Shown: positions 30,059 through 55,217 of the stretch, one piece after another
Numbering within the stretch: the first letter of the stretch is position 1
How the letters are laid out: the number at the start of each line of letters is the position of its first letter
DNA from: a virus
Length of the DNA stretch: 64,000 bases
IMG/VR virus record: IMGVR_UViG_3300032316_001090
Coordinates: 8,784-72,783 of that record
Strand: one strand, 5' to 3'
Position numbers and translations under genes: made by a program
Notes under the pieces: model-generated
Seen by the model: only the letters and a program-made list of their open reading frames with translations
Database searches by the model: none
What the model was told of the DNA's origin: nothing

Positions 30059-30086
30059 AAAGGGGCAGCAGCCCCTTTACTTTTAT
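30059..30086 (+). terminator. rho-independent terminator hairpin + U-tract
   Basis: AAAGGGGC-AGCA-GCCCCTTT perfect 8-bp stem followed by ACTTTTAT, directly after the stop of 29099..30055. Confidence 0.6.
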
Positions 30087-30109: not shown

Positions 30110-30418
30110 ATGGATACTGAAGCCTTGGTTGCTCACGCACGAGCAAGATTTGATCATGCAGCCGCCCGACGGGTGCTAAAAGAAAAATACGAAGCACGGA
30201 TGGTGTTTGCCTACGCCGGCGGCATGTGGCGTGCTGGGCCAGAATTGCTGACTACACTGCTGGCCTGCGCACAGGACAAAGATATTGTAATTTTAGATTT
30301 ATACGAAACCCCGGTACAGATCACTGTAACAGATTTGTTTGCTCTAGCACACGAACGCTGGCAAGAACAAATGAATGCATGGAAAGTAGAATGGGACGAA
30401 CTAAACAAACGACGTTGA
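30110..30418 (+). CDS. hypothetical protein, 102 aa
   Basis: First ORF after the terminator/promoter; heads the biosynthetic island. Confidence 0.45.
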   Translation: MDTEALVAHARARFDHAAARRVLKEKYEARMVFAYAGGMWRAGPELLTTLLACAQDKDIVILDLYETPVQITVTDLFALAHERWQEQMNAWKVEWDELNKRR

Positions 30419-31212
30419 GCCAAGGTGTGCTAATCTTTGCCTTTAACAACGAGGCAACAGACTACATTGCCATGGCTGCATGGTCGGCCCGGAATATTCG
30501 CAGACATTTGAACTTGCCTGTGGCAGTGGTCACAGATGATCCTGCAGCAGCCGCCGAGCATGAATTTGAACACATCATTGCAACTGTAGCAGACACTGGA
30601 GGCACAAGACACTTTGCCGACTACAATGCCAATGTGACTTGGCACAATGCCGGACGCATCACGGCCTACGAACTGTCACCGTTTGATCAAACCTTGGTAC
30701 TGGATGCTGACTATGTGATAGCCAGTGATAGATTATTGCAAGTACTAACACTACCACAACAATTTGCAGCCTTCAAGGATGGATTTGATCCCAGCGGTAT
30801 GACCAATCTTGAAACATTTGGTGCGTACAATATGCCCATGTGGTGGGCCACTGTAATGATGTTCCGGCGTGGCAACGTCAGCCAATACATATTTGATTCA
30901 ATGCAAATGATACGAGCCAACTGGCAGCACTACCGGGACTTGTACGGTATTCATCAAAGCAACTATCGCAATGACTATGCCCTGAGCATTGCCCTGGGCT
31001 TGGTAGCAGGCGCTGAACAATCAGTGCATGAAATATTCTTCCCCATGCTCAACGTCATGCCAGAACACGGATTAACTTGTGTGGAACAGGATCATTATGA
31101 AGTCACGTACACCAACTCTGAAGGCCGACTCAAAACTTTGAGTTGGGCTGGATTAGACTTTCACGCCATGTGTAAACGGCATCTGGAGGTGATAGTTGCA
31201 GCCCATGGATGA
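30379..31212 (+). CDS. glycosyltransferase, GT-A fold (GT8-like, DXD), paralog 1
   Basis: VLIFAFNNEATDYIAMAAW...PVAVVTDD and LVLDADYVI resemble the GT8/GT-A nucleotide-sugar-binding and DXD motifs; start uncertain (ATGs at 30226, 30379, 30391). Confidence 0.45.
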   Translation: MESRMGRTKQTTLSQGVLIFAFNNEATDYIAMAAWSARNIRRHLNLPVAVVTDDPAAAAEHEFEHIIATVADTGGTRHFADYNANVTWHNAGRITAYELSPFDQTLVLDADYVIASDRLLQVLTLPQQFAAFKDGFDPSGMTNLETFGAYNMPMWWATVMMFRRGNVSQYIFDSMQMIRANWQHYRDLYGIHQSNYRNDYALSIALGLVAGAEQSVHEIFFPMLNVMPEHGLTCVEQDHYEVTYTNSEGRLKTLSWAGLDFHAMCKRHLEVIVAAHG

Positions 31213-31966
31213 ACAAGGTTACTTAATTGTTGCTGTCAACAGCGACACAGTTGACTATCAAGACTGTGCCCGTGCCCTGGCCAAGACCATACGTTACTGG
31301 GATCCGTCAGCACGTATTTGTCTGGTCACAGACAGCCCTTACACTGACCCCATATATGATCACCACAGACAACTTGTGCCACAGGCCAATCCCTATGCCA
31401 ATGATGCACAACTGTTCCGACTCACACCATTTCGTGAAACCATCAAACTGGAAGCAGACATGTTTGTTGTATCACCTATCTCTCATTGGTGGGATCAGTT
31501 TAGACACCGTGATGTTGTAGTATCCACAGGCTGTAGAGACTGGCAGGATCGTGAGAGCACAGCAAGACACTATCGTCGCGTTTTTGATGCCAACAACTTG
31601 CCTGATGTGTACAATGCCATCACATATTGGCGTCGCAGTGAAACTGCCAAGGAATTTTTTGGCTGGATACGAGACATATTTGACAATTGGGCAGAGTTCA
31701 AAAAACTCATCAAGTTTCCTGATGAGACGCCATCAACTGACCTGGTGTATGCCATGGCAGCAGAGATCATGGGTCGGGATCGTGTGACCATGCCATTCAG
31801 CACATATCCAAAGATAGTGCATATGAAACGACACACAGCAGGCACTGCCACGGAAGCCTGGACCAAGGAACTGGTTTGGGAATATCAGGATTGTCGCTTG
31901 CGAATACAAACAGTAGCACAGACAGGTGCGTTTCATTACAATGTCAAACAGTGGCGGGCTCAATGA
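31205..31966 (+). CDS. glycosyltransferase, GT-A fold (GT8-like), paralog 2
   Basis: YLIVAVNSDTVDYQDCARALAKTIRYWDPSARICLVTDS parallels the previous protein; LEADMFVV DXD-like. Confidence 0.45.
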   Translation: MDEQGYLIVAVNSDTVDYQDCARALAKTIRYWDPSARICLVTDSPYTDPIYDHHRQLVPQANPYANDAQLFRLTPFRETIKLEADMFVVSPISHWWDQFRHRDVVVSTGCRDWQDRESTARHYRRVFDANNLPDVYNAITYWRRSETAKEFFGWIRDIFDNWAEFKKLIKFPDETPSTDLVYAMAAEIMGRDRVTMPFSTYPKIVHMKRHTAGTATEAWTKELVWEYQDCRLRIQTVAQTGAFHYNVKQWRAQ

Positions 31967-32355
31967 AAAAAGTGTTTGTCAACGGCACATTTGATATATT
32001 ACATGTGGGACACATTGCCTTGCTTGACTATGCAAAGAGCCTGGGTGACAAGTTGGTTGTAGCAATTGACAGTGATGCTAGAGTTAGATTGCTAAAAGGA
32101 TCCCATAGACCTATAAATTCTCAAAATGAACGAGGCACACTACTCAGCGCACTCAAAAGCGTAGATGAAGTGTTTGTATTTGACACAGACGATGAATTAA
32201 GAAGCCTCATTCAAGCGTGTGATGTCATGGTAAAAGGTTCAGACTACAAACACAAACCCATAGTTGGTCAAGAGGTATGCAAAGAAATAGTTTTTTTTGA
32301 AAGATTAAATGGATACAGCACAACAAACAAAATACAAGATATTGTTAATCGGTGA
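31963..32355 (+). CDS. heptose-1-phosphate nucleotidyltransferase, HldE domain II / HldC-like (cytidylyltransferase fold)
   Basis: KVFVNGTFDILHVGHIALLDYAKSLGDKLVVAIDSDARVRLLKGSHRPIN...VKGSDYK...STTNKI aligns along its length with the HldE adenylyltransferase domain (VFTNGCFDILHAGHVSYL...LIVAVNSDAS...GDSRPVN...VKGGDY...STTNII); ATG overlaps the upstream stop (ATGA). Confidence 0.75.
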   Translation: MKKVFVNGTFDILHVGHIALLDYAKSLGDKLVVAIDSDARVRLLKGSHRPINSQNERGTLLSALKSVDEVFVFDTDDELRSLIQACDVMVKGSDYKHKPIVGQEVCKEIVFFERLNGYSTTNKIQDIVNR

Positions 32356-33070
32356 TGACTGCAATGACGTTTACACATATGGCTATGTGAAACGCATCAG
32401 TCCCGAAGCACCGGTTCCAGTATTTGAACCACACTATACCATTCGCCGGGATGGTATGGCAGGCAATGTAAAAAATAATCTAGAAGCATTGGGATGTGTG
32501 GTTGATTTCATAAGAGACAAAGACAGAGTCAGTGAGAAAAACAGACTGATCGACGAGCGTACCAAACAACAATTACTGCGTGTGGATCGAGATGTTGAAG
32601 GCAACCCCATCACTTTTGAAACAGCAATACCTCCGGTGTACGATGCCATTGTGATCAGCGACTACAACAAAGGCACAGTGACTTACGAACTCATAGAAGA
32701 ACTGATTCGAGAAATCAACATACCCATCTTTGTTGACACAAAGAAAACAGACCTAGCAAGACTCTCAGGATGTTATGTCAAGATCAATGCACTGGAAAAA
32801 AGTCGTGCAACCAGTTTGCCTGACCCAGCGCATTTGATTGTCACACACGGTGACAATGGTGCTGAATGGAATGGCTGGGTATTTCCTGCTGAAATTGTGG
32901 GCGACGTCACTGACGTATGTGGTGCAGGTGATACATTCTTGGCAGCTCTTGCGTACAAATTCCTAGAGACCAAAGACATGAGACAAGCAGTTATATTTGC
33001 AAACAAGGCCGCATCAATAACAGTGCAACACATAGGCGTGTACGCACCAAGACTGGACAAAATCAAATGA
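32309..33070 (+). CDS. sugar (heptose-7-phosphate) kinase, HldE domain I / HldA-like, pfkB family
   Basis: KILLIGDDCNDVYTYGYVKRISPEAPVPV matches the HldE kinase N-terminus (ILVVGDVMLDRYWYG...RISPEAPVPV); C-terminal GAGDTFLAALAY is the pfkB signature. Confidence 0.75.
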   Translation: MDTAQQTKYKILLIGDDCNDVYTYGYVKRISPEAPVPVFEPHYTIRRDGMAGNVKNNLEALGCVVDFIRDKDRVSEKNRLIDERTKQQLLRVDRDVEGNPITFETAIPPVYDAIVISDYNKGTVTYELIEELIREINIPIFVDTKKTDLARLSGCYVKINALEKSRATSLPDPAHLIVTHGDNGAEWNGWVFPAEIVGDVTDVCGAGDTFLAALAYKFLETKDMRQAVIFANKAASITVQHIGVYAPRLDKIK

Positions 33071-33426
33071 CAAGACTAACAGGCAGAGTAGAAAAAGGTT
33101 GGGGTTCAGAAGAAATTTGGGTATCCAATGATCGTTACTGTAGCAAGTTCATGCACTTTAATACAGGTGCAAAATTCAGTATGCATTTTCACCGTGAGAA
33201 GGAAGAGACTTGGCGTATCATGTCAGGCAAGTTTTTGGTCAAACATATTCAAACTGTCAATGCACAGGTGTTTGAAAAGATTGCAGAAGCCGGAGCAGTG
33301 TTTCACAACGCACCTTTGCATCCGCATCAAGTCATCTGCATAGAAGCAGGCACAATATTGGAAGTCAGTACAGCAGATTCGGTAGAAGACAACTATCGTG
33401 TGTTACCCGGAGACAGTCAAAAATGA
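33067..33426 (+). CDS. cupin-fold sugar(-phosphate/nucleotide-sugar) isomerase-like protein, 119 aa
   Basis: KGWGSEEIW ... SMHFHREKEETWRIMSGKFLV resembles the type II phosphomannose-isomerase / FdtA-WxcM cupin motifs; ATGA overlap with the kinase gene. Confidence 0.5.
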   Translation: MTRLTGRVEKGWGSEEIWVSNDRYCSKFMHFNTGAKFSMHFHREKEETWRIMSGKFLVKHIQTVNAQVFEKIAEAGAVFHNAPLHPHQVICIEAGTILEVSTADSVEDNYRVLPGDSQK

Positions 33427-33740
33427 AATACATGGTTGATATCGACGGCACAATATGTAACAACACTTACGGTGATTATCACAGTGCTGTTCCGTTTGTG
33501 GATAGAATTGAACATTTTAATAAATTGTTTGATGCAGGGCATGAAATACATTACTGGACAGCCAGGGGAGGCAACACCGGAATTGACTGGACCATTCTGA
33601 CCGCACAGCAATTTGCCAACTGGCAAGTAAAGTATACAAGTTTGCGAATGCACAAACCAACTTATGATATCTGGATTGATGACAAAGCAATCAATGTAGA
33701 AAATTATTTTGTAGAGAACGCAGACAAAAATGACGCCTGA
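33423..33740 (+). CDS. minimal HAD-superfamily phosphatase (GmhB-like candidate), 105 aa
   Basis: HAD motif I DIDGT (aa 6-10), motif II YWTAR, motif III K (MHKP), motif IV WIDDKA; sits between the kinase and downstream GT genes. Confidence 0.5.
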   Translation: MKYMVDIDGTICNNTYGDYHSAVPFVDRIEHFNKLFDAGHEIHYWTARGGNTGIDWTILTAQQFANWQVKYTSLRMHKPTYDIWIDDKAINVENYFVENADKNDA

Positions 33741-34065
33741 ACAACTGCAACAACTATTCCAGGCCACGCCCGAACCACCACCGCTATTTTATCGATTGTA
33801 CTATGATGATCAGGGACGTCCATTATTCTACAGCATGGAAGATTGCCCTGGTACATACATTGAGATTGACCAGGAAACTTTTGCTCGCAGTGCCTCCAAC
33901 GTGCGTGTGCGTGATGGTCAGTTGGTAGAAATAACGTGGGCAACCACAACAAAATTGGTCCCTGGCAACTGTGGCACACCTTGTCATCCTGACAATGTTG
34001 CTGTCGTTGTTGCCGAGAATCAACCTCATACTTGCTGGAGCAAACAAACATATGAATCAAATTGA
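33730..34065 (+). CDS. hypothetical protein, 111 aa
   Basis: ORF with ATGA-type overlap at both ends. Confidence 0.4.
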   Translation: MTPEQLQQLFQATPEPPPLFYRLYYDDQGRPLFYSMEDCPGTYIEIDQETFARSASNVRVRDGQLVEITWATTTKLVPGNCGTPCHPDNVAVVVAENQPHTCWSKQTYESN

Positions 34066-34978
34066 CATTGCAGACTTGGACTGTGTATACTTGAGTTACG
34101 ACGAACCTGAAAAAGAGGAGTTTTGGGTAAAAATTAAAAACATGATACCTTGGGCCACTCGAGTAGATGGCGTCAAAGGGTCAGACGCTGCACACAAAGC
34201 CGCAGCCGCAGCCAGCACCACTGAACGCTTTGTATTGATCGACGGTGACAACATTCCTGATGTAGCCTTCTTCAACCAAACATTGACATTTGCCACACCC
34301 GACTGGGAACAGGCAGTGTTTCGTTGGCGTGCTCATAATCACATCAATGGATTGATGTATGGCAATGGTGGATTGAGTTCATGGACACGTGAGTTTGTTA
34401 ACAACATGCAAACGCATGAAGCCACAGATGGGCGTGTGGAAACTGAAGTAGAATTTTGTTTTGATCCCTTGTACTGGCCCATGTACGATTGTTACTCAAC
34501 CACATACCCCAATGGCTCTCCTTTTCAAGCATGGCGTGCTGGATTCCGTGAAGGTGTCAAAATGTGCTTGAGCCGAGGCGCAAAACCCACTGTGGAACAG
34601 TTTCAACAACAGGTACATCAACGCAATTTGGATCATTTGACCATTTGGCACAACATCGGTGCAGATGTTAACAATGGACAGTGGGCCATGGCCGGCGCCA
34701 GACAGGGCACATACATGACCATGCTCACAAACTGGGATCATAGACAGGTACAAGACTTTGACGCTCTGTCTGAAATTTGGGACACTGTAAAAAATTCTGA
34801 CCCAAGATTGTTGGGCGGGCGTGTGGCGGATGATCTGCATTCACAATTGGACTTGCCCATGGCCATATTTGAAGGTGAGCAGAGTCGTTTCTTCAAACAA
34901 CATTATCGTTCAAACTGGTCAAATCGTGGCATCATGGTCAGAGAGATTGACGTTATTAGACAACAAGAAGGTTGGTGA
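34052..34978 (+). CDS. glycosyltransferase-like protein (GT-A, DXD), 308 aa
   Basis: VYLSYDEPEKEEFW ... RFVLIDGDNIPD (DGD as the DXD motif); start taken at MNQIDIADLD. Confidence 0.4.
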   Translation: MNQIDIADLDCVYLSYDEPEKEEFWVKIKNMIPWATRVDGVKGSDAAHKAAAAASTTERFVLIDGDNIPDVAFFNQTLTFATPDWEQAVFRWRAHNHINGLMYGNGGLSSWTREFVNNMQTHEATDGRVETEVEFCFDPLYWPMYDCYSTTYPNGSPFQAWRAGFREGVKMCLSRGAKPTVEQFQQQVHQRNLDHLTIWHNIGADVNNGQWAMAGARQGTYMTMLTNWDHRQVQDFDALSEIWDTVKNSDPRLLGGRVADDLHSQLDLPMAIFEGEQSRFFKQHYRSNWSNRGIMVREIDVIRQQEGW

Positions 34979-36378
34979 TGAACAAAGGTGATGAGTCAAT
35001 AGGAACCAAGAGCAAGTTTTTGAATTCTGCTGAGCAGATGAAGGAACAACTAGGTCCTGCACTTTGTTTGGCCAAGTGGAAACAAGTCAGTTTGCACTTG
35101 CCCACCGGGCTGAATAACAGTTGTTATCATCCTCCACTACACAAAATACCTGTAGAAAACTTAGCCGCTGATCCTGGATCCTTGCACAACACACCGCACA
35201 AAAAAGCGCAACGTGTGATGATGTTGCAGAACGAAAAGCCCGCAGAATGTCAGTACTGCTGGAACATGGAAGCGGAAAACAAGCTGAGTGATCGTCACTA
35301 TAGATCTGGCGAGCCCTGGGCGGCTGTGGACTTTGAATCAATAAAGAATAGCACAGGAGAAGAAAATGACGTTATCCCTAGCTACGTTGAGGTTAATTTT
35401 AATAATGTGTGTAATCTCATGTGCAGTTATTGCAGTCCGCAATTCTCTAGCAGCTGGCAACAAGAAGTGGACCGATTGGGTGGCTACCCTACTGCTAGGG
35501 TTCACAATGATCCTGGGCATTTTGGTGGAGATCGCAGGGTTATACCGGTTAGAGAGCATAACCCTTATGTAGAAGCCTTTTGGCAGTGGTGGCCTACCTT
35601 GTACCCACACCTAGAACATTTTAGAATGACTGGTGGTGAGCCACTGTTAGACAAGAATACCTATCGTGTGTTTGATTATGTGTTGAAGAACCCCAGTCCC
35701 AAACTGCATTTGAATGTCACCAGTAACTTCAGTGTAGATGAAAAGTCATGGCAAAAGTACTTGGCGTATGTAAAACAAATCTGTGATGGTCGCATTGAGC
35801 ATTTCATGCAGTATGTGAGCTTGGACGGCTGGGGATCTCAAGCAGAATACATGCGACATGGTCTGGATTTTAACTTGTTGTGGGATCGAGTAAATCAATT
35901 CTTAACTGAAGTGCCCAACCACTCGAGCCTTACATTTATCATCACAATGAACAATCTCAGTGTGACCAGTTTGGACAAGTTATTTGCTGGCATATTGGGC
36001 CTGCGAAAAGTCTACAGTCATACCTATCAACGTGTGTGGTTTGACACCCCTGTATTACGAGAACCTGCCTGGCAAAGCCTGCAGATCTTGCCTGAAAGTT
36101 ATGCAGAAAAATTAGAATGGTTGTGGGCATGGATGATGCGTCAGATTGAAACAGAGGCAGAACCATTCAAAGGATTCAAAGACTATGAACTGCACAGACT
36201 GGATCGTGACATTGCCTGGATGCGATCAGCACAATTAGAAAATCACTCTCAAGCCAAGGCCGACTTCTATCGTTTTTTCAATGAACATGACCGCCGGCGC
36301 GGTACGGACTTTTTGAAGACATTTCCAGAAATGAAAACCTGGTGGGAGGAGTGTGCATACCATGCTAGGCAATCGTAA
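34978..36378 (+). CDS. radical SAM enzyme, subfamily A (N-terminal Cys4 domain + CX3CX2C)
   Basis: CNLMCSYC at nt 35410-35433; GGEPLL glycine-rich SAM motif; N-terminal C-x18-C-x41-C-x2-C; tgATG overlap with the upstream gene. Confidence 0.7.
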   Translation: MNKGDESIGTKSKFLNSAEQMKEQLGPALCLAKWKQVSLHLPTGLNNSCYHPPLHKIPVENLAADPGSLHNTPHKKAQRVMMLQNEKPAECQYCWNMEAENKLSDRHYRSGEPWAAVDFESIKNSTGEENDVIPSYVEVNFNNVCNLMCSYCSPQFSSSWQQEVDRLGGYPTARVHNDPGHFGGDRRVIPVREHNPYVEAFWQWWPTLYPHLEHFRMTGGEPLLDKNTYRVFDYVLKNPSPKLHLNVTSNFSVDEKSWQKYLAYVKQICDGRIEHFMQYVSLDGWGSQAEYMRHGLDFNLLWDRVNQFLTEVPNHSSLTFIITMNNLSVTSLDKLFAGILGLRKVYSHTYQRVWFDTPVLREPAWQSLQILPESYAEKLEWLWAWMMRQIETEAEPFKGFKDYELHRLDRDIAWMRSAQLENHSQAKADFYRFFNEHDRRRGTDFLKTFPEMKTWWEECAYHARQS

Positions 36379-48116: not shown

Positions 48117-49191
48117 CCAACATGCCCATGAGCTCTTGCCATAATATCTTGGTCAGCCCACCGTTGTAGAAGTGATTGAAGTTGTGTTCTACAATTTCAA
48201 CACAGCCCTGGTGTATGCGCTGACGTTCCTCAACGCCTAACTTTTCTAGATGTTTTAGCAGCTGGGTGACCTTTTCTACTCGCACTATGTCATCAGTTTC
48301 CAAGTCATAGCTCTCATCAAACACTGAATCAAATGTGCGGAAACCATATTCTCGCATGTAGGCCAGGCTGCCAGCAGGAGCCACCAACACAAACGGCATT
48401 TCCATGGCAATGGCCTTGAAGGTCTTTTCTGTGATGTGTGTACGGCGTCCAAAGTACACAGTTTCGGTGGGCACGTATACTAGACTGTCGGCAGCCTCAT
48501 CAAAGTTTGTGAGCCAACAACTGGCCATTTGTTGAGTCTCTTCACCGGGAAACAGTTTAGGCAATGGCGCTGCCGCAAACACTTGCTCAATGTCGGGATA
48601 TATGTTATTATACTTACGAGCTATCTTACTGATATCAACACCCTCATAGGTGCAGGTTCTAGGAGCCGATATCCAGTTGTGATCCAGCTCATGTTTGAAT
48701 ACGTTATACAAGAACAACACACGATGATCACGCTTGCCGGCCACAATACGATTGGGACTCATAAAAGTCCGTGTGGGCTGCCGATCTCGTGCTCGCGGAA
48801 TCAAAAAACTCTTGTCGTAGCCTCGAAACCAATCCTGACAGGCCCAACCATGATAAAAATAGTAATGCGGAGTCCAGCCATACACACGACACATTTCTTC
48901 CACATGCTCGCCCCGCTCGCTAACTACTACATGACCAGGCGGTTGAACCCAAATATCATCGTTGCGGCGAATCACATCATCAAACAAAGGCTTGTGCAAG
49001 TCCATGTGAACAGGTTCTTGATCATGCATGAATATATAGTCAATTTCGCGCACATCGTCTCCACCGTAGTTGAACAAACTTTCGGAATCACTGCGCCCCG
49101 GTGGATCACAAAAAAATACTCTAGTACCAGGAACATGTTGCCGAATCCAAGGCCAAAAGGTGTTGTTGTAAATTTCGTCTATTCTAATCAT
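48100..49191 (-). CDS. glycosyltransferase, fucosyltransferase-like TEK-motif family, paralog 3
   Basis: RRTHITEKTFKAIAMEMPFVLVAPAGSLAYMREYGFRTFDSVFDESYD; start codon overlaps the divergent start of 49190..52408 (CATG). Confidence 0.45.
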   Translation of the reverse strand: MIRIDEIYNNTFWPWIRQHVPGTRVFFCDPPGRSDSESLFNYGGDDVREIDYIFMHDQEPVHMDLHKPLFDDVIRRNDDIWVQPPGHVVVSERGEHVEEMCRVYGWTPHYYFYHGWACQDWFRGYDKSFLIPRARDRQPTRTFMSPNRIVAGKRDHRVLFLYNVFKHELDHNWISAPRTCTYEGVDISKIARKYNNIYPDIEQVFAAAPLPKLFPGEETQQMASCWLTNFDEAADSLVYVPTETVYFGRRTHITEKTFKAIAMEMPFVLVAPAGSLAYMREYGFRTFDSVFDESYDLETDDIVRVEKVTQLLKHLEKLGVEERQRIHQGCVEIVEHNFNHFYNGGLTKILWQELMGMLDEFTV

Positions 49192-52100
49192 GTTTGATAT
49201 TTTTTATTCAGGACCTAAGCCTAATTTGTTTGTGCATGAGCGCAAAGTTGACAGTATTGAACATGCACGGCAATTGAGCACCACTAGATACTTTTGGTGG
49301 GTAAATTACTTAGCGGACTACAGTAACTTTGATTTTCTTTGGGAACCTGTGCCCTGGCAGGCCAATCAAATTCATACATGGCCCAGCCAATGGCACGAAT
49401 ATTCAGGAACTTACCTGGTTCCAAAACAACCCACCGATCAATTGAACTTCCACAGTGAGATTGTTCCTAACCAATCTCTAAGAAAAAACTGGCATGTGTT
49501 GCACGCCATAGACGAAACTGGTTGGAATTGGACCTGGGCTCCACATCCATTGGATCCACCTTACATCTATGTGTTCGGTAATCAGTGGTGGCCCGGTGAA
49601 ATCATGCCCACTGTGGAATATCATGTGCCTGGCGCCACAGAACGCAAGTACATGGACATGACTGCAACATTAGTCCAAGACAAAACCAACTGGACCATGC
49701 ATGCATGTGTCAAACAATGGGATTACAGCTGGGTGCCAGATCCTGGATCACCACCGTATGTCTATGTGTGGGGCAATCAACATTGGCCTGGCGAAATCAT
49801 GCCTACTATGACATACACAGTGCCTGGTGCAGTAGAGATCAAATACGTAGATGGTCCACAACCTGAGCTCAGCAGTTGCATGAGTGGCTGGGAGTTTTGC
49901 GAAGATATTGACCACAGTGCCTGGGATTGGACCTGGGTACCAAACCCCAAAGACCCACCTTACATCTATGTGTGGGGCAACCAATGGAATCCACCAGAGT
50001 TCAAAGCCAGCTTGAGATATCATGTGTCCGGCGCAACAGAAATCAAGTACATGGATCGCCGCACACGCCGGTTGCCCAACTACAGCAATCATTGGCGTGT
50101 GCATATCAATGTAGAACAATTTGATTACTCCTGGGAACCCAATCCGTTTGATCCTCCTTACATTTATGTGTTTGGAAATCAATGGAACAGCGCAGTGCTA
50201 GAGCCCACTGTGGCCTATCATGTGCCTGGTGCCACAGAACGCAAGTATGTGGAAGATATTGTGGCCACAGTGGCGCAGAATCCTGCTGCGTTTGAACTGA
50301 TTGATGATGTACTAGAATTTGATTATTCCTGGAGACCCAACCCTACTGATCCGCCTTATGTGTATGTGTTCGGTAATCAATGGCTCACACCTGAACAGCG
50401 GCCAGCATTGCAGTACACCGTTGGTAACGCTACAGAAATCAAGTACATGGATGAGCCAAAGGCACAGCGCAAAGGCGATCCAGAAAAGTTTCAAACATTG
50501 TTTGATTGTGTGTTTGATTGGTCGTGGGAACCAGAACCTGGCAGCCCTCCATACAACTATATGTTTGGTAATCAATGGCATGCTGCCGAAGTCATGCCCA
50601 CTGTGGAATATCGCATGCCGGGTGCCACAGAAGTCAAATACATGGATGAGCCAAAAGCCCAGTTACCTGAGAACCCCAATCGACCTTGGTACAACGTAGT
50701 TGAAAGTGACATGGATTATTCTTGGGTGCCCGACCCAGGCGACCCTCCGTACATTTACGTGTTTGGCAACCAATGGCATGCTGCCGAAATCATGCCCACT
50801 GTGGAATATCGCATGCCCGGTGCCGCAGACCGCAAGTACATGGACTCACCTGTGGCTGAATTACCAGCAGACATGACATTATGGCATGTGCCAGACAATG
50901 TTGATATTCGGGACATGGATTTCTCTTGGGTACCGGATCCTGGATCACCGCCTTACATCTATCAATTTGCTACACAGCATCAAAAAACCGGAGGCCCACA
51001 GTATCGTATGCCAGGTGCAACAGAAATCAAGTATGTGGACATGATGCAAGCCGAAGTCAAAGCTGAATCTGTGCCTGTTGTTGAGATCGATCACTTGGAT
51101 GGCCATGCAGGCAATATTCCCAACACCATTAAGCGTATACGATATTTTGACAACTATCGTGACACATTGATTCGCCTGGCCAAAAGTCTTGTGGGCACAC
51201 ATGAACATGTGTGGGTGTGTAGTTCAATATGCGATTACACTGACTTTGATTTTTCCTGGCACCCAGAAAAGTGGCAAAGCACCATGCTGCATGTGTTCCC
51301 CAGCAACGAACAAAAGTTTGGAGACACATTCTACATGCATGTTCCAACCTTTGCTGAACGTGCAGAAAAGAAACAGTTGTTGGAATGGTACTCGGTAAAC
51401 TATGTGTCTCGGCGCAAGGCACTGCGTAGACCCATGCCTGTGATTGAACACAGTGAGGATAGCCAAGTCAATGTTGTTAAGAACACCAATTGGGCAGGAC
51501 CGCTGGCTACATTTACCACAACAGATTATGTGCCGGGCGATATGGTCACTGTTCCACTGTGGCGTACTGAAACCAAGACCATTACGCCACTCAGCCGAGG
51601 TGCAACCAGTGTGATTGTGCCAAAGTCGGCAGTGGGACACATACGCACACAGTTGTACGATTATCCTTACATAGACAAAACACATCGTTTATTAAAAGAT
51701 GAACCATTAGACATTGTGTTTATCAGCAATGGCGAACCCAATGCCAAGTCTAATTATTTGCAGATGACCGTGTATCTGGCCAACGAGTCAAGGTACACAA
51801 ACCGAGTTCATGTGGTAGAAGGAGTAAATGGACGAGTGGCAGCATATCATGCGGCTGCTAGAGCCAGCACCACACCTTGGTTCTTTGCTGTGTTTGCCAA
51901 GCTAGAAGTAAATCAAATGTTTGATTGGACCTGGCAACCTGATCGTATGCAACAGCCCAAACACTATATTTTCCATGCTGGTAATCCTGTAAATGGATTG
52001 GTGTACGGCCATCAGGCTATGATTGCTTACAACCGACAATTGGTATTAGAGAACACAGGTGTTGGTTTGGATTTTACGCTGGATCAAGCACACGAAGTTG

Positions 52101-52408
52101 TACCTGTCGTCAGTGGCACAGCCATGTATGCCGAAACACCTTGGATGGCCTGGCGCACCGCGTTCCGTGAAGCACTCAAACTACGTGCCAGCTTGCCTGA
52201 CGTGGAAAATGAATATAGACTAAAAGTCTGGTTAAAGGAAGACTCCGGTACCATTGCTAACGGACATTGGAGCTCAAAAGGCGCACAGGATGCAGTGGAG
52301 TATTATGACGCAGTCGGGGGTGACTTTGCAGAACTGCGCAAGAGTTATGACTGGGCTTGGTTGGCCAGCTATGCATTTATGCGTCGCAGTCTAACAACTG
52401 ATCAATAA
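49190..52408 (+). CDS. tandem-repeat protein, 1072 aa (8 x ~67-aa DYSWxPxPxxPPYIYVFGNQW repeats)
   Basis: Long uninterrupted ORF; eight consecutive repeats, near-identical at the nucleotide level; related degenerate modules at the N-terminus (DFDFLWEPVPW) and C-terminus (DFDFSWHPEKW; DWTWQPD). Confidence 0.75.
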   Translation: MFDIFYSGPKPNLFVHERKVDSIEHARQLSTTRYFWWVNYLADYSNFDFLWEPVPWQANQIHTWPSQWHEYSGTYLVPKQPTDQLNFHSEIVPNQSLRKNWHVLHAIDETGWNWTWAPHPLDPPYIYVFGNQWWPGEIMPTVEYHVPGATERKYMDMTATLVQDKTNWTMHACVKQWDYSWVPDPGSPPYVYVWGNQHWPGEIMPTMTYTVPGAVEIKYVDGPQPELSSCMSGWEFCEDIDHSAWDWTWVPNPKDPPYIYVWGNQWNPPEFKASLRYHVSGATEIKYMDRRTRRLPNYSNHWRVHINVEQFDYSWEPNPFDPPYIYVFGNQWNSAVLEPTVAYHVPGATERKYVEDIVATVAQNPAAFELIDDVLEFDYSWRPNPTDPPYVYVFGNQWLTPEQRPALQYTVGNATEIKYMDEPKAQRKGDPEKFQTLFDCVFDWSWEPEPGSPPYNYMFGNQWHAAEVMPTVEYRMPGATEVKYMDEPKAQLPENPNRPWYNVVESDMDYSWVPDPGDPPYIYVFGNQWHAAEIMPTVEYRMPGAADRKYMDSPVAELPADMTLWHVPDNVDIRDMDFSWVPDPGSPPYIYQFATQHQKTGGPQYRMPGATEIKYVDMMQAEVKAESVPVVEIDHLDGHAGNIPNTIKRIRYFDNYRDTLIRLAKSLVGTHEHVWVCSSICDYTDFDFSWHPEKWQSTMLHVFPSNEQKFGDTFYMHVPTFAERAEKKQLLEWYSVNYVSRRKALRRPMPVIEHSEDSQVNVVKNTNWAGPLATFTTTDYVPGDMVTVPLWRTETKTITPLSRGATSVIVPKSAVGHIRTQLYDYPYIDKTHRLLKDEPLDIVFISNGEPNAKSNYLQMTVYLANESRYTNRVHVVEGVNGRVAAYHAAARASTTPWFFAVFAKLEVNQMFDWTWQPDRMQQPKHYIFHAGNPVNGLVYGHQAMIAYNRQLVLENTGVGLDFTLDQAHEVVPVVSGTAMYAETPWMAWRTAFREALKLRASLPDVENEYRLKVWLKEDSGTIANGHWSSKGAQDAVEYYDAVGGDFAELRKSYDWAWLASYAFMRRSLTTDQ
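49517..51020 (+). repeat. coding tandem repeat array, ~200-nt period x 8
   Basis: Recurring ...caatggcatgctgccgaaRtcatgcccactgtggaatatcgcatgccSggtgcc... blocks; protein-level period ~65-70 aa. Confidence 0.8.
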
Positions 52409-52409
52409 A

Positions 52410-53216
52410 CTATTTTAGCAAATTGTTGTGAGTTTGAATTAATGCATACACATGTTGTGTATTGGTTAGGTAACGATCTTCAAACAGTGCGCCGTCATAA
52501 ATTTTACACATCTTTGATAAATTATAATTGATCCAGGCCTGTTCAATGACTGTACAATCTATCTCTGTGTCAGTGTTGGCAAATATATTTTCTATTATGC
52601 GATTACATTTGATAAAAGATTGCCAACCTTGATTTTTTGCTATAAATTCGCGCCATAACACATACAGTGATTGATCAGGAAAAAATGTTTGATTCAAGAA
52701 AGTTGCCAAAGAATTTAATTCAACGCAAAAATTTTTGAAAGAAAAAAAAGATTCAAACTTAAACTCATGCACAGAATTTGATATTGATAAAAAGTCAGCA
52801 TAGTAGTTGGCATACTTTTTGCGATCATCAAATTTGCAGTACCAATTGTCTCTTAATTTAATTGTGTGATTTCTAACAGAATCAGGTAAGTTCAACTGTT
52901 GCTTTTCAAATCCTATATCACCAGCTTTGAAAATTAAATTGGTAAGTGCAATAAAAAAAGTATCATCGTTATCAGAATCTATTACAATCCTAATAACTTG
53001 ATCACCATCATTGATTTTTAACTTAGTGTGTGGAGCTGAAAAATGTCCACACTCAATTATGCGGTTGTTGAGATAACCATCATCAGGATTATGCGCAGAG
53101 TAGGTAGGCGGTCTAAAAATACTGCGTTGACTTGGTGCAGTCTGCATGATATATACGTTACTGACATATTCTAAAAAATGGCCATGTGTACTACCGTGAA
53201 AATCTATTTTAATCAT
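52410..53216 (-). CDS. hypothetical protein, 268 aa
   Basis: ORF convergent with the repeat gene, 1-nt gap; first of a co-directional - strand run. Confidence 0.5.
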   Translation of the reverse strand: MIKIDFHGSTHGHFLEYVSNVYIMQTAPSQRSIFRPPTYSAHNPDDGYLNNRIIECGHFSAPHTKLKINDGDQVIRIVIDSDNDDTFFIALTNLIFKAGDIGFEKQQLNLPDSVRNHTIKLRDNWYCKFDDRKKYANYYADFLSISNSVHEFKFESFFSFKNFCVELNSLATFLNQTFFPDQSLYVLWREFIAKNQGWQSFIKCNRIIENIFANTDTEIDCTVIEQAWINYNLSKMCKIYDGALFEDRYLTNTQHVYALIQTHNNLLK

Positions 53217-54289
53217 AAAATAACATCTAACAACTGATCAATGATGTATTCAACTTCAAGATCAGTCAGTTCAGGATAGATAGGCAAACTCAAGCAACGT
53301 CTGCTCAATGAGCTAGCAGCACTGAGTATATCTGGACCTGGATAATGCTGATATGCCGGTAGCTCGTGCAATGGGTGTGTGTAATGCACTCTAGTATCAA
53401 TACCTGCCGTTAGCAGCCTGGCTCGAACTTGATCTCGATTGTCTATGTCAACCACAAACTTGTGGAAACAATGCTTGTCAAAATTACTTTTGTCTATTAG
53501 CGATCGTGCAGGCGATTTGTCCAAGCGGTTCATCCAATAGGCAGCAATGGTGCTTCTGCGACTTTGCCATGCAGCCAAGTGCCGGGTCTTGACCATCATC
53601 TGCGCACAATCCACTTCACTCATGCGACTGTTGGTGCCTATCTCGGCATAGCCTGTGCTCTTGCCGTTGTTGACCCAACTACGAGCATAATTCAACAACT
53701 CATAATCATCTGTAACAACGGCACCACCGTTGCCATAGTTGCCTAGATTTTTCATGGGATCAAAACTAATAGCGGTTGACCCATATCTGATACAACCATT
53801 AGAGAGCCAATGCTGGGCGGCATCTTCAATCAAGCCTGAACCCATTCGATTTTGTAATACGTTGGGCAACGCTGATCCGTACAAGCCAATACCAAGAATG
53901 GCTTGATAGGATACATCAGGATTGATTTTTGTAAGATTCATGTTACCATACGCATCAGTGTCTACAAAATGCAGATTCCAGCCAGCGCGAACAAATGCAT
54001 TGGCTGATGCAGGAAAGGTCATTGATGGAACAAGCACTGTGGGCGGATTTATTCCCAGTCTTTGTCGAGCAAAGCTGGCAATAATTTCTAGTGCTTGTGT
54101 GCCTGAATGACAGGTAACAGCATGTTTGACATGATTTTCGTAGGCCAACCATGACTCAAAGTTGGCAGTGTGCTCTGCATTCATGAGACGCCCAGATGCT
54201 AGGACGTGATCCGTTGCATCCAGTATCTCTTGGCGTAGATTGTTATACTGTCTTTGAAGACCAGTAAACTGAATTAGAGAGCCATTCAT
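53213..54289 (-). CDS. DegT/DnrJ/EryC1/StrS-family PLP-dependent sugar aminotransferase
   Basis: N-terminus LIQFTGLQRQY...; TCHSGTQALEI; PLP-lysine segment ISFDPMKNLGNYGNGGAVVTDDYEL...NNGKS. Confidence 0.8.
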   Translation of the reverse strand: MNGSLIQFTGLQRQYNNLRQEILDATDHVLASGRLMNAEHTANFESWLAYENHVKHAVTCHSGTQALEIIASFARQRLGINPPTVLVPSMTFPASANAFVRAGWNLHFVDTDAYGNMNLTKINPDVSYQAILGIGLYGSALPNVLQNRMGSGLIEDAAQHWLSNGCIRYGSTAISFDPMKNLGNYGNGGAVVTDDYELLNYARSWVNNGKSTGYAEIGTNSRMSEVDCAQMMVKTRHLAAWQSRRSTIAAYWMNRLDKSPARSLIDKSNFDKHCFHKFVVDIDNRDQVRARLLTAGIDTRVHYTHPLHELPAYQHYPGPDILSAASSLSRRCLSLPIYPELTDLEVEYIIDQLLDVIL

Positions 54290-55217
54290 AGTAATTTTGA
54301 AATCCTTGTTCTACGTCTACTCGGGGGTCAAAGCTCAAAATGGTTCTGGCTCTGTCAATGTTCAATGCACCACGTGATGGAAAGTCAGCATCTCGGTCAC
54401 CGACTTCAATGGTGCCTCGGCCCACAATCTTCACAATCATTTCTGCGGCTTCTAGTAGGCTTACTGAATGACTCTTGGTGATATTGAATGTCATGTTGCG
54501 GCACATGATGCGTGTGGCAGCGGCAACAATGCCATCAGCGGCGTCATCCACATAGGTAAAGTCCAAGGTTTCATTGGCACCATTTACCTTGAGAGTTTCT
54601 CCTCGCATGGCAGCAAGCATGAATTTTGCAATCACACGATCCGCCACGTCAAGAGGTCCGTACACAGCACTGGGACGAATGATCACATACTCAAAGCCAC
54701 AGCGACGAGCATAATCTTTGACCAGTTCTTCTCCACATAATTTCAAGATACCATACTGTCCTTTGGGATGGCATGGATCATCCTCCAGCACGTCATCTTC
54801 AAAGTCTCCGTACACCATGCTGGAACTGATGTACACAAATCGTTCAATGCCGTGCTTTTTGGCACTCTCAAGCATGTTGACCAGACCCCGCATCATGACA
54901 TCAGCGGCCTCAGTTGGCTTGTGATTCACGGCCTTTTGTCTGGGGTAGCTGGCACAATGAATGATGACCCGGGGTTTATGGTTGAGTACCGCCAAGTCAC
55001 AGGTCCAAAAGTTTGAAATATCAAAGCATTCAATTTTTGTGTCTGGTGCAATCTTTTTCTGTCGCTCTGCCATCAAGTAGTCAAGTTCCTCTTGAGGAAT
55101 AAAATTGTGATAAGTGGTTTTTGTGTCTAATATGACCACCTGTTCATCACGTGCTTGAAGACGTTGTACTACGTTGTGCCCAATAAGGCCTAGGCCGCCT
55201 GTTACTAAAAATGTCAT
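54243..55217 (-). CDS. NAD-dependent sugar epimerase/dehydratase (extended SDR)
   Basis: N-terminal TGGLGLIGHNVVQRL (GxxGxxG Rossmann motif); catalytic YGILK (YxxxK). Confidence 0.8.
   Translation of the reverse strand: MTFLVTGGLGLIGHNVVQRLQARDEQVVILDTKTTYHNFIPQEELDYLMAERQKKIAPDTKIECFDISNFWTCDLAVLNHKPRVIIHCASYPRQKAVNHKPTEAADVMMRGLVNMLESAKKHGIERFVYISSSMVYGDFEDDVLEDDPCHPKGQYGILKLCGEELVKDYARRCGFEYVIIRPSAVYGPLDVADRVIAKFMLAAMRGETLKVNGANETLDFTYVDDAADGIVAAATRIMCRNMTFNITKSHSVSLLEAAEMIVKIVGRGTIEVGDRDADFPSRGALNIDRARTILSFDPRVDVEQGFQNYYEWLSNSVYWSSKTV

Follow-up and report, generated by a model that had tools for sequence, protein, structure and literature searches.

A set of about 25 soluble enzymes for the activation, linkage and chemical decoration of sugars is encoded in a 64,000-nucleotide stretch of viral DNA (the window), and this cluster is a conserved genomic component in a clade of freshwater jumbo myophages that is abundant and uncultivated. 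With roughly even confidence, we read it as a soluble cytoplasmic system that activates sugars, transfers glycosyl groups and tailors glycans, most likely on virion (fibre) proteins. No published description of the cluster was found in the literature.

Conservation and modular organization of the cluster

A previous annotation made from the sequence alone (the sequence-only reading) had placed the enzyme genes at positions 30110-55217 of the window. The gene set was borne out, whereas the end point had to be moved, as the conserved unit extends one gene further, to 55552 (Table 1). For several genes the true start is located further downstream than that of the mechanical ORF: the first GT8-like gene starts near 30379-30391 instead of 30226, and the start of the GT-A-fold gene was corrected from 33971 to 34052 because all its homologs have 308 aa.

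The same reading had compared the region to the hypervariable, acquired islands of cyanomyophages. The structural genes are nearest to those of the Rak2-like jumbo phages Phosso, Atu_ph07, XbC2 and SCTP-2 (~33% identity), and the phage is a Rak2-like jumbo myophage, with the clade only distantly related to the Rak2-like phages. Saprospiraceae are the candidate host family. Core gene order was kept in all 42 fully flanked relatives and recurs in at least 147 viral contigs, with variable tailoring genes confined to a few slots. Among those contigs the amidinotransferase, the best-conserved gene of the cluster, is 82-100% identical; its median identity is 88%, compared to 80% for the neighbouring ThyX. 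Given the Rak2-like structural genes and the conserved syntenic core, a cyanomyophage hypervariable island was rejected.

Nor is a single unit supported, as had been assumed; the region is made up of three juxtaposed modules. Module 1, adjacent to the fibre genes, comprises the two GT8-like transferases, the GT-A-fold protein and, overlapping the latter, an N-twitch radical-SAM enzyme; the cultured Ralstonia phage RsoM2USA shares this part. Module 2 holds the cupin, the HldA-like kinase, the HAD phosphatase and the HldC-like nucleotidyltransferase, and in 26 of 29 relatives the HldC/HldA/cupin trio has different surroundings. The strictly syntenic core is module 3, which encodes three to five N-twitch radical-SAM enzymes, the 341-aa His/Glu-motif protein, carbamoyltransferase, amidinotransferase, two GT-B proteins, the 1072-aa protein, DegT, SDR and the 112-aa protein; it adjoins ThyX in a syntenic arrangement, and part of it runs in the opposite direction to the structural genes. 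Amidinotransferase, carbamoyltransferase and N_Twi_rSAM genes are also neighbours in two marine contigs, one viral and one from a MAG. Together with the synteny in 42/42 relatives, this adjacency argues for one pathway rather than a chance mix.

Table 1. Features of the gene cluster and its borders (positions in the window).
Feature	Position	Strand	Evidence or remark
Terminator-like hairpin	30059..30078	+	Closes fibre gene unit; fibre-like gene ends 30055
Promoter-like site	30076-30104		Follows terminator-like hairpin
102-aa conserved hypothetical	30110..30418	+	First gene of + strand block; no family match
GT8-like (retaining GT-A) glycosyltransferase 1	30391..31212	+	DxD motif LDADY; glycogenin profile match; RsoM2USA ORF353 29% identical
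GT8-like glycosyltransferase 2	31205..31966	+	Paralog, motif LEADM; phrog_1903 E 2.5e-11; RsoM2USA ORF352 29% identical
HldC/RfaE-domain-II-like sugar-1-phosphate nucleotidyltransferase	31963..32355	+	TIGR02199 E 7e-36; Pfam CTP_transf_like 1e-15
HldA/RfaE-domain-I-like PfkB sugar-phosphate kinase	32309..33070	+	TIGR02198 E 7e-39; PfkB 1e-16
Small cupin	33067..33426	+	PMI C-terminal domain E 3e-4, Cupin_2 7e-4, both under cut-offs
Small HAD-type phosphatase	33423..33740	+	DIDGT motif; NF046079 E 1.8e-5, capsule phosphatase TIGR01689 1.3e-4, both under cut-off
111-aa hypothetical	33730..34065	+	No family match; kept in 3/29 loci
308-aa GT-A-fold (nucleotide-diphospho-sugar transferase) protein, predicted	34052..34978	+	Nearly invariant DGD motif
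N-terminal-twitch radical SAM enzyme 1 (subgroup b)	34978..36378	+	NF033640 E 4e-96, 323 bits
GT-B TEK-motif glycosyltransferase-like protein 1	36362..37468	+	Paralog of proteins 2 (E 1e-11) and 3 (E 2e-8)
N-terminal-twitch radical SAM enzyme 2 (subgroup b)	37461..38810	+	NF033640 E 6e-86
N-terminal-twitch radical SAM enzyme 3 (subgroup a)	38785..40047	+	NF033640 E 1e-118, 397 bits
N-terminal-twitch radical SAM enzyme 4 (subgroup a)	40044..41252	+	NF033640 E 6e-98
N-terminal-twitch radical SAM enzyme 5 (subgroup a)	41249..42526	+	NF033640 E 2e-79
341-aa protein, undescribed family	42519..43544	+	42/42 relatives
NodU/CmcH/TobZ-type carbamoyltransferase, 493 codons	43639..45120	+	Pfam Carbam_trans_C E 9e-47, Carbam_trans_N
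FkbM-family methyltransferase, accessory	45117..45902	+	TIGR01444 E 4e-26; only 5/42 relatives
AGAT/StrB1-family amidinotransferase	45899..46942	-	PDB phmmer: AGAT 1.4e-14, StrB1 4.5e-12, HsvA, SxtG
GT-B TEK-motif glycosyltransferase-like protein 2	46926..48116	-	Paralogy; 41/42 relatives
GT-B TEK-motif glycosyltransferase-like protein 3	48100..49191	-	Paralog of protein 1
1072-aa repeat protein	49190..52408	+	42/42 relatives, gene length variable
268-aa accessory protein	52410..53216	-	No family match; 1/42 relatives
DegT/DnrJ/EryC1-family PLP sugar aminotransferase	53213..54289	-	PF01041 E 2e-55
Extended-SDR NDP-sugar epimerase or 4,6-dehydratase	54243..55217	-	PF01370 E 3e-44; TIGR01181 7e-33, under cut-off
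112-aa conserved hypothetical, core member	55214..55552	-	42/42 relatives; no family match; beyond the end given previously
319-aa accessory protein	55558..56517	-	Variable slot between core and ThyX; no family match; 1/42 relatives

Sugar activation and glycosyl transfer

Nearly every enzyme call of the sequence-only reading held up in HMM, profile or fold analyses. For the nucleotide-heptose module the families were matched, but scores stayed under the equivalog or family cut-offs (HldC-like: TIGR02199 123 bits, cut-off 181; HldA-like: TIGR02198 134 bits, cut-off 345). The HldA-like kinase is shorter (253 aa) than the 315-position model and is 55-92% identical across at least 178 viral contigs. 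An NCBIfam/HMM scan of the region found no GmhA. The cupin accompanies HldC and HldA in 28-29 of 29 loci and is a candidate sugar-phosphate isomerase or epimerase, which may replace the absent GmhA step. The product of module 2 is most likely a nucleotide-activated heptose or a similar sugar.

No significant named match was obtained for the glycosyltransferase-like genes in Pfam, NCBIfam or PHROG, the sole PHROG match being the unannotated phrog_1903 on 31196-31966. A profile built from the GT8-like pair and its homologs matched only glycogenin (GT8; E 3.4e-5), via the DxD motif, in line with the previous assignment. The 308-aa protein is predicted to adopt the proposed GT-A fold, with low model confidence (pLDDT 62). 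As for the three fucosyltransferase-like TEK proteins, a GT-B fold nearest to GT10 fucosyltransferase was supported for one, and the other two are its paralogs. At least six glycosyltransferase-like genes had been counted before, and a seventh domain was added: the 1072-aa protein has eight tandem ~66-aa repeats (motif W.P.P..PPY.Y, residues ~95-640), and its C-terminal domain is a homolog of the GT-A-fold protein, with 30% identity to RsoM2USA ORF348.

Radical-SAM and other tailoring enzymes

All five predicted radical-SAM enzymes scored above the cut-off of 170 on NCBIfam NF033640 (268-397 bits), and CX3CX2C, GGEP and four N-terminal Cys are kept in each. Enzyme 3 additionally matched Pfam SPASM (residues 32-97) and Radical_SAM, and enzyme 5 was found in 42/42 relatives at 70-92% identity. 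In Saprospiraceae genomes, N_Twi_rSAM members lie inside polysaccharide loci that also encode DegT, SDR, GT2 and an ABC exporter, which by analogy supports a glycan role for the family. The family is not sugar-specific, because its Paenibacillus members lie within an ACP/ketosynthase lipid cluster.

Clear family matches were obtained for the carbamoyltransferase, FkbM, DegT and SDR proteins, as had been predicted. The amidinotransferase call also held, with both catalytic residues, Cys 332 and His 192, aligned to AGAT/StrB1. HMM and structure tests assigned none of the radical-SAM, amidinotransferase or carbamoyltransferase proteins to unrelated families. In the window, the carbamoyltransferase gene is broken by an in-frame TGA (44089-44091), a single nonsense SNP; a near-identical contig (L001) has CGA at this site, and no stop interrupts the gene in any of 71 relatives. 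For the DegT protein the best NCBIfam match was PseC (9e-40, under cut-off).

The family of the 341-aa protein numbers 5138 clusters when grouped at 90% identity and about 400 when grouped at 50%; no relatives were found in Pfam or PDB. The protein has invariant His/Asn/Lys residues and the motifs LNxLHHHFE, QLNxLCHExE and GKTHxEAF, and is a putative metal-dependent enzyme.

Proposed pathway and acceptor of the glycan

Substrates, step order and acceptor we infer as follows. SDR and DegT would produce a 4-amino-deoxy sugar nucleotide and module 2 an activated heptose-type sugar, from which up to seven GT domains could build an oligosaccharide in the cytoplasm. Tailoring of this glycan may involve O-carbamoylation, conversion of an amine to a guanidino group by amidination, and radical-SAM reactions of a kind that epimerise, dehydrogenate or deoxygenate, while lineage-variable methyl, acyl, deacetyl and sulfate steps would be encoded in the insertion slots. 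The analysis supports the earlier proposal of a heavily tailored glycan with heptose-type and amino sugars. The acceptor would be a macromolecule made during infection, with virion proteins as the likeliest candidates, specifically the fibre proteins whose genes lie directly upstream, resembling fibril and capsid glycosylation in giant viruses.

A cytoplasmic acceptor is favoured by the lack of any credible transmembrane segment in the island proteins. The fibre link is favoured by the placement of module 1, which in this phage as in RsoM2USA comes after a giant structural protein and a fibre gene, despite a baseplate identity of only ~33% between this phage and its cultured jumbo relatives, and by the protein encoded directly upstream of the enzyme set, 31% of which is Ser+Thr; such richness is common among fibre proteins and for that reason also counts against the reading. 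Further points against it are the sub-cut-off heptose assignments with no GmhA, the pLDDT of the GT-A model, the interrupted carbamoyltransferase and the Paenibacillus lipid cluster.

The main rival is hypermodification of DNA, in which a tailored glycan on a 5-hydroxymethyl- or 5-hydroxy-pyrimidine of the phage genome would block host nucleases and the cluster would be an elaborate version of phage DNA-glycan clusters. Published clusters of kinase/HAD, cytidylyltransferase and GT-B genes place mono- or di-heptose on 5hmC, and arabinosylation pathways share the kinase, HAD phosphatase and nucleotidyltransferase logic. This cassette, together with the position of module 3 next to ThyX and partly opposite in strand to the structural genes, speaks against a virion glycan; the solubility of all proteins also fits, and strain-variable tailoring suits an arms race with restriction systems. 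We nevertheless consider modification of DNA unlikely: the scanned window genes include no cytosine methyltransferase, TET/5mYOX or ThyA-type hydroxymethylase (~280 kb of the genome lies outside), the DNA glycans known so far contain no more than three sugars compared to up to seven GT domains here, module 1 stays behind the fibre genes across deep divergence, and GT8-like (glycogenin-type) transferases are not known to act on DNA. Rather improbable, too, is a remodelling of the LPS core, O-antigen or capsule during infection that would prevent superinfection or the trapping of progeny on debris. HldA/HldC-type and GT8 enzymes are typical of LPS-core functions, GT25 (LOS-type) and Peptidase_S11 occur among accessory genes of relatives, O-antigen-like loci of the candidate host family contain bacterial N_Twi_rSAM homologs, and a cyanophage amidinotransferase adjoins KdsA, KdsB and GTs. 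Such remodelling would depend on host lipid carriers and export machinery. Against it, the region encodes no membrane protein, initiating phosphoglycosyltransferase, flippase, polymerase, ligase or exporter; moreover, ~25 genes, including the most conserved of the region, are a large investment for a late surface change by a lytic phage. Because this membrane machinery is lacking, the cluster is not a copied host LPS locus, and wholesale acquisition of one was rejected also in view of the 78 bacterial genome loci, none of which held the whole set, a result that likewise weighs against envelope remodelling.

Very improbable is a diffusible aminoglycoside-, nucleoside- or guanidino-sugar-type metabolite made during infection. 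The pairing of amidinotransferase and carbamoyltransferase is known from streptomycin/bluensomycin- and saxitoxin-type pathways (PDB matches StrB1 and SxtG), twitch radical-SAM enzymes such as BtrN and HygY act on aminoglycosides, and all enzymes are soluble. The aminoglycoside analogy drawn previously gained no specific support, however: Pfam and NCBIfam revealed no cyclitol synthase, scaffold-forming enzyme, exporter or self-resistance gene, seven GT domains together with the 1072-aa repeat protein indicate an oligosaccharide attached to a macromolecule, and synteny with structural genes has no rationale for a metabolite.

Accessory and hypothetical proteins

Across the relatives, fixed slots hold 39 accessory gene clusters, among them methyltransferases, PIG-L deacetylase, GT25, GFO/IDH/MocA oxidoreductase, an APS-kinase-like protein, DUF6071 proteins and extra radical-SAM enzymes; apart from the DUF6071 proteins, several accessory proteins of no assigned family carry a GDS-type motif at their start. 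Such slot-wise variation is the pattern expected of a surface-exposed glycan under recognition. The 102-aa protein is 80-92% identical in three relatives with the same arrangement. The gene of the 268-aa accessory protein lies in a low-GC stretch (GC 0.41).

Phage identity and position of the cluster

The virion proteins encoded over positions 1-30055 of the window comprise a baseplate hub, a gp6-like wedge, a giant ORF of 5212 amino acids and fibre-like proteins. The wedge protein was nearest to Rak2-like jumbo phages (about 33% identity), with relatives in Sinorhizobium phage Phosso, Agrobacterium phage Atu_ph07, Xanthomonas phage XbC2, Yersinia phage fHe-Yen9-04 and Salicola phage SCTP-2, and megablast searches with pieces of 20-25 kb gave no DNA-level match among 50,697 phage records. 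Based on these two results, the source genome is that of an uncultivated jumbo myophage. The sequence-only reading had pointed to sugar genes in hypervariable islands of cyanomyophages as a known parallel; a cyanophage origin is ruled out by the Rak2-like backbone, and the core of the cluster was syntenic in 42 of 42 relatives. A paper on the 'moraphage' lineage was considered as a description of this clade and rejected, as it deals with another lineage and says nothing of these enzymes.

From the hairpin and promoter-like site that follow the last fibre-like gene, genes are tightly packed up to about position 55552. Two features of the initial gene map were discarded: the apparent membrane-spanning stretch at the N-terminus of ORF 33971 derived from an over-extended GTG start, and antisense ORFs at 33417-34060 were artefacts of mechanical ORF picking. 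Close relatives encode versions of the 5212-aa ORF with 54-67% identity, and one part of the ORF corresponds to a 2541-aa virion protein (ORF361) of Ralstonia phage RsoM2USA. Beyond the cluster, a 244-aa neighbour of ThyX gave nothing meaningful in a single-sequence search of the PDB, and a conserved gene pair on the minus strand matches phrog_1314 and phrog_1297; genes matching these two families are also adjacent in a distant relative (L136).

Positions of features in and around the cluster (nucleotides of the window)
Feature	Position	Remarks
5212-aa single ORF	10849-26487	directly 3' of baseplate wedge gene
318-aa fibre-like protein	29099-30055	31% Ser+Thr; no family match; immediately upstream of cluster
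Terminator-like hairpin	30059-30078	3' of last fibre-like gene, followed by promoter-like site
GT-A-fold protein	34052-34978	
TEK protein	36362-37468	GT-B fold
341-aa protein	42519-43544	
In-frame TGA	44089-44091	within carbamoyltransferase frame
TEK protein	46926-48116	GT-B fold
TEK protein	48100-49191	GT-B fold
1072-aa protein	49190-52408	
Tandem repeats	49475-51110	within 1072-aa protein gene
Most similar DNA repeat copies	50545-50646, 50743-50844	86% identical
Lowest GC of window	52001-54000	0.41 (0.43-0.49 elsewhere)
Accessory gene	52410-53216	in 1 of 42 relatives
ThyX	56524-57210	other non-structural genes beyond
440-aa protein, labelled HNH endonuclease	60829-62151	minus strand; phrog_1314
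CobS/MoxR-type ATPase	62889-63980	minus strand; phrog_1297

Tailoring enzymes of the cluster

All five radical-SAM proteins scored above the curated cut-off of 170 bits (323, 289, 397, 328 and 268 bits) on NF033640, the 'twitch domain-containing radical SAM protein' family (N_Twi_rSAM). The CX3CX2C motif (C140/C144/C147), the GGEP motif (G202-P205) and the N-terminal cysteines C32, C50, C93 and C96 are invariant in all five, the SPASM domain was placed N-terminally by Pfam, and the proteins split into two subgroups. A single-sequence PDB search with one of them returned nothing meaningful, and no description of the function of this family was found in the literature searched.

The amidinotransferase showed similarity to human AGAT (1.4e-14), StrB1 (4.5e-12), HsvA (2.2e-11) and SxtG (1.3e-9). 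Its Cys332 (GGISCCTQD) aligned to GGFHCWTCD of AGAT and its His192 (GHGDAVF) to MHIDATF, with the triad Asp just outside the aligned block. The Pfam amidinotransferase model gave no match up to an E-value of 5, and the protein is, as judged from these alignments, a divergent member of the AGAT/StrB1 type. For the carbamoyltransferase, 159 bits were obtained on Carbam_trans_C (cut-off 27) and 52 and 45 bits on Carbam_trans_N (cut-off 24). Its frame is broken by an in-frame TGA into ORFs of 150 and 317 amino acids. L001, another assembly from this population, has CGA instead, and this is the sole mismatch in 15,529 bases; the gene was intact at this site in 71 of 71 relatives. Stop-codon reassignment or recoding was therefore rejected, and the TGA is a lone nonsense variant.

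The radical-SAM, amidinotransferase and carbamoyltransferase assignments of the sequence-only reading thus survived HMM and sequence checks, and its FkbM, DegT and SDR calls gave unambiguous HMM matches. Amidinotransferase, carbamoyltransferase and N_Twi_rSAM genes are also grouped in a marine single-cell virus contig.

Glycosyltransferase-like proteins and undescribed families

No named family was assigned to the glycosyltransferase-like, 341-aa, 1072-aa, 268-aa and 319-aa proteins by Pfam, NCBIfam or PHROGs, the sole library match among the glycosyltransferase-like proteins being the unannotated phrog_1903. Single-sequence PDB searches with a TEK protein, both GT8-like proteins and the GT-A-fold protein likewise gave nothing meaningful. 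A profile built from eight homologs of the GT8-like pair, both paralogs included, matched 19 PDB sequences, all of them glycogenins (best E-value 3.4e-5), and aligned through the nucleotide-binding region with its DxD motif (LDADY against MDADT). This bears out the earlier GT8-like call for the two genes, to which the Pfam GT8 model itself gave no match. The predicted GT-B fold of the TEK protein came equally close to GT10-type fucosyltransferases and to the DNA glycosyltransferases of T4, and the model of the GT-A-fold protein was of low confidence.

In the 1072-aa protein, eight tandem repeats of about 66 amino acids are followed by a C-terminal homolog of the GT-A-fold protein, which would represent a seventh glycosyltransferase-like domain. 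The repeats carry the motif W.P.P..PPY.Y. Among relatives the gene is about 2-4 kb long, suggesting that the number of repeats varies.

The 341-aa protein contains His/Glu-rich motifs and the invariant residues H108, G116, N140, H144, G197 and K209. Its family forms about 400 clusters at 50% identity, a few members having N-terminal extensions of 140-400 amino acids, and a profile of 83 diverse members produced only chance-level matches in PDB and Pfam. In metagenomes these families are extremely abundant: clustering at 90% identity gives 3086 clusters of TEK proteins, 5138 of 341-aa family members and over 8000 of the GT-A-fold family, all annotated 'hypothetical'.

The putative nucleotide-heptose cassette

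Kinase and nucleotidyltransferase best matched RfaE/HldE domains (E-values 7e-39 and 7e-36), with 134 and 123 bits that lie below the HldA and HldC equivalog cut-offs of 345 and 181. The small HAD protein weakly matched the BT0820 model (2e-5) and a capsule phosphatase model (1e-4), and the cupin, conserved beside the two enzymes, is PMI-like by a weak match. No GmhA or SIS-domain protein was detected in Pfam and NCBIfam scans of the cluster; the ketose-to-aldose isomerization that is normally the task of GmhA might fall to the PMI-like cupin. Given the scores below cut-off, the weak cupin and HAD matches and the missing GmhA, the nucleotide-heptose module proposed earlier is plausible only. 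The trio of HldC-like, HldA-like and cupin genes was kept in 28-29 of 29 loci found via the kinase, three of which share the arrangement of the window, and unrelated genes surround it in those more distant jumbo contigs that were examined.

Conservation of the core and variable slots

At least 147 IMG/VR contigs, the longest of 364 kb, encode the amidinotransferase at 82-100% identity. Synteny was counted in 42 loci with full 10-kb flanks, covering 10 kb on either side of each match with mechanically called ORFs. In 41-42 of these the same gene order was present: three radical-SAM enzymes, the 341-aa protein, carbamoyltransferase, amidinotransferase and two TEK proteins, followed by the repeat protein, DegT, SDR and a 112-aa protein. 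ThyX was located beside this core in 39 of the 42, and median identity was higher for the amidinotransferase (88%) than for ThyX (80%).

FkbM, in contrast to this core, was present in five loci, and the genes for the 268-aa and 319-aa proteins in one each. Altogether 39 accessory clusters were counted among the relatives, with variable genes confined to fixed slots. Those with a family match comprise extra radical-SAM proteins, class I methyltransferases, a PIG-L deacetylase, GT25, a GFO/IDH/MocA oxidoreductase, an APS-kinase-like protein, Peptidase_S11 and DUF6071 proteins; several unassigned ones begin with a GDS-type motif. In the window, the stretch of lowest GC coincides with an accessory gene.

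Homologs in bacterial genomes

N_Twi_rSAM homologs were searched in 185,579 species genomes with a profile seeded by an alignment of three paralogs, since that of all five was too divergent, and 78 genome loci with homologs were examined. Other genes of the island were present in only three of them (L169-L171), where the phage gene order is reproduced and, in L170, a fibre-gene homolog adjoins; for this reason the three are taken to be phage contigs binned into MAGs. L169 and L170 (NZ_JBBAKG010000003.1 and NZ_JBBAKG010000001.1; 148 kb and 183 kb) belong to a RefSeq Haliscomenobacter MAG and are 83-89% identical, while L171 (PBLX01000002.1) and L172 are relatives in 'Legionellales' and 'Porticoccaceae' MAGs. 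On the marine 'Legionellales' MAG contig, the carbamoyltransferase and the N_Twi_rSAM arrays follow the order of the island, and no amidinotransferase homolog was found within its 21 kb. The presence of such relatives in MAGs reflects either bin contamination or a hint at the host, and Saprospiraceae are a weakly supported candidate.

Within the island, Pfam and NCBIfam gave no match to an initiating transferase, Wzx/Wzy, flippase, polymerase, ABC exporter or ligase, and none of its proteins has a credible transmembrane segment. A host LPS locus acquired wholesale, the possibility raised in the sequence-only reading, is contradicted by this lack of membrane machinery and by the lack of a bacterial match among the 78 loci.

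Genuine bacterial N_Twi_rSAM homologs were 33-43% identical and frequently arranged in tandem arrays. In Saprospiraceae their neighbours are DegT, SDR, GT2, UbiA-type and ABC-exporter genes of polysaccharide loci. An Elusimicrobia MAG (L178) and L176 have N_Twi_rSAM domains repeated four to six times in tandem, and in the former the domains are fused to long TPR-repeat regions in ORFs of 564-1128 amino acids. Two Paenibacillus isolates (L198, L206) have the gene among two ACPs, an acyl ligase-like protein and FabG-, FabF- and FabZ-like proteins in a ketosynthase context, together with a thioesterase, a membrane GT2 and an ABC transporter; these surroundings are those of a lipid or glycolipid pathway and not of sugars alone. 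Vibrio phage K566 (L164, OZ196521.1, 161548-168284; 255 kb) harbors four paralogs in a row amid hypothetical genes, and weaker single copies are found in phages nt-1 and CZ01. The bacterial contexts and the K566 array point to a family that is versatile, yet recurrently tied to glycans.

Comparison with other viral glycan clusters

Giant eukaryotic viruses, a few mycobacteriophages and phage DNA are established cases of virus-encoded glycosylation, and virus-encoded glycan clusters are as a kind already known. We take the fibril glycan genes of Mimivirus to include the 4,6-dehydratase R141 and the aminotransferase L136 together with glycosyltransferases, and chlorovirus capsids to be glycosylated by glycosyltransferases of their own. 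On this understanding, the giant-virus clusters and the present one are both virus-encoded, soluble and independent of membrane machinery, and share a 4,6-dehydratase-type SDR, a DegT aminotransferase and multiple GT-A and GT-B proteins. In contrast to the giant-virus systems, the host is bacterial here and glycosylation of virion proteins is a prediction; beyond their enzyme sets, the cluster has five N-twitch radical-SAM enzymes, an amidinotransferase, a carbamoyltransferase and a heptose-type cassette.

A small version of the fibre-adjacent module was identified in the cultured jumbo phage RsoM2USA (L168, MG752970.1, 215949-226089; ORF348-353 and ORF358), with homologs of two GT8-like proteins (29% identical), two GT-A-fold proteins (39% and 32%), an N_Twi_rSAM (34%) and an SDR (26%). 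As in the present phage, it follows a giant structural protein (2541 aa) and a fibre gene. This shared position suggests that the fibre-adjacent module is older than the other parts of the cluster. No tblastn match to the amidinotransferase, the 341-aa protein or the TEK proteins was obtained in RsoM2USA, and the 30-kb locus around the mini-cluster contains no homolog of the heptose cassette or the syntenic core. Its genes are all annotated as hypothetical, and none is among the ten identified virion bands.

The sugar/LPS region of Synechococcus phage S-SCSM2R also contains glycosyltransferases, a small cupin 'MPI' and an AGAT-family amidinotransferase (30% identical). The latter (L165, PQ898602.1, 213353-214246) adjoins KdsA, KdsB, 2OG-Fe(II) oxygenases and glycosyltransferases, and no N_Twi_rSAM or carbamoyltransferase homologs were found in the region examined; this is a separate association of a phage amidinotransferase with sugar genes. 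Sugar regions of cyanomyophages belong to a different phage lineage and are variable, whereas the present core is strictly conserved.

Possible acceptors of the glycan

Since membrane segments, initiating transferase, flippase, polymerase, ligase and exporter are lacking, assembly would proceed on a cytoplasmic acceptor or with borrowed host machinery. As an overall explanation we favour glycosylation of virion proteins of the giant-virus type, which we hold to be about evenly poised between right and wrong, the acceptor itself being less sure. It is favoured because the fibre-adjacent module has kept its position behind the fibre genes across deep divergence, because the 318-aa protein upstream is so rich in Ser and Thr, because GT8 has a protein-glycosylating member, and because variable tailoring would suit a recognized surface.

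The main rival, which we regard as unlikely, is hypermodification of DNA. Heptose is a documented DNA appendage in phages, where clusters with a kinase/HAD, a cytidylyltransferase and a GT-B enzyme place it on 5hmC (10.1101/2023.12.21.572611), and the present cluster shares with them a sugar kinase, a HAD phosphatase, a cytidylyltransferase-like enzyme and GT-B proteins. The resemblance of the GT-B model to the T4 enzymes and the location of the core next to ThyX speak for the same acceptor. However, the scanned genes of the 64-kb window include ThyX only, and neither an MT plus TET pair, a ThyA-like hydroxymethylase nor another base-hydroxymethylating or -hydroxylating enzyme; glycosyltransferases and tailoring enzymes are also far more numerous here. 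Radical-SAM, amidino and carbamoyl chemistry is mentioned neither for these phage DNA-glycan clusters (10.1101/2023.12.21.572611) nor for arabinosyl-5hoC pathways (PMC13326640).

Remodelling of the host envelope is less likely than either virion or DNA glycosylation, and we give it little credence. Capsule loci of the Campylobacter jejuni type likewise combine nucleotide-heptose genes, a cupin, SDR, aminotransferase and methyltransferases with strain-variable accessory genes, but their kinase and nucleotidyltransferase are of the HddA/HddC type, whereas those found here are closest to the HldA/HldC (ADP-heptose) type, and unlike bacterial O-antigen and capsule loci the cluster lacks export, polymerization and lipid-carrier machinery. 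A diffusible metabolite, also ranked behind the virion and DNA readings, seems very improbable. Pathways of the streptomycin/bluensomycin and saxitoxin types do pair an amidinotransferase (StrB1, SxtG) with a NodU/CmcH-type carbamoyltransferase; they also have scaffold enzymes, whereas no cyclitol synthase, PKS, export or resistance genes are found here and the context is that of macromolecular glycosylation.

With virion-protein glycosylation as the preferred reading, a fuller scheme can be proposed tentatively, with the odds somewhat against it, for which we infer the substrates and the order of steps. Globally abundant freshwater jumbo phages, possibly infecting Saprospiraceae (Bacteroidota), may use a factory of the giant-virus type to put a guanidino- and carbamoyl-bearing glycan of heptose and amino sugars on tail fibres or other virion proteins; the twitch radical-SAM enzymes would remodel it after assembly, and tailoring enzymes encoded in the variable slots would confer a strain-specific 'serotype'. 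If true, these would be the first virus particles with a guanidino-glycan, and the N_Twi_rSAM family and the 341-aa family with its His/Glu motifs would gain a functional context for the first time.

In the literature searched, no description was found of a phage cluster of about 25 genes with such chemistry, and the combination (five N-twitch radical-SAM enzymes, amidinotransferase, carbamoyltransferase, heptose-type cassette, seven glycosyltransferase domains and two undescribed families), the strictness with which an abundant clade of jumbo phages conserves it and the variation of its tailoring genes slot by slot are all undescribed there. Once product and acceptor are resolved, thousands of 'hypothetical' proteins would gain a function and the N-terminal-twitch radical-SAM family a substrate class, and a new phage route to masking virions or DNA may come to light. 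As part of the system is present in RsoM2USA, a culturable phage of Ralstonia, the question is experimentally tractable.
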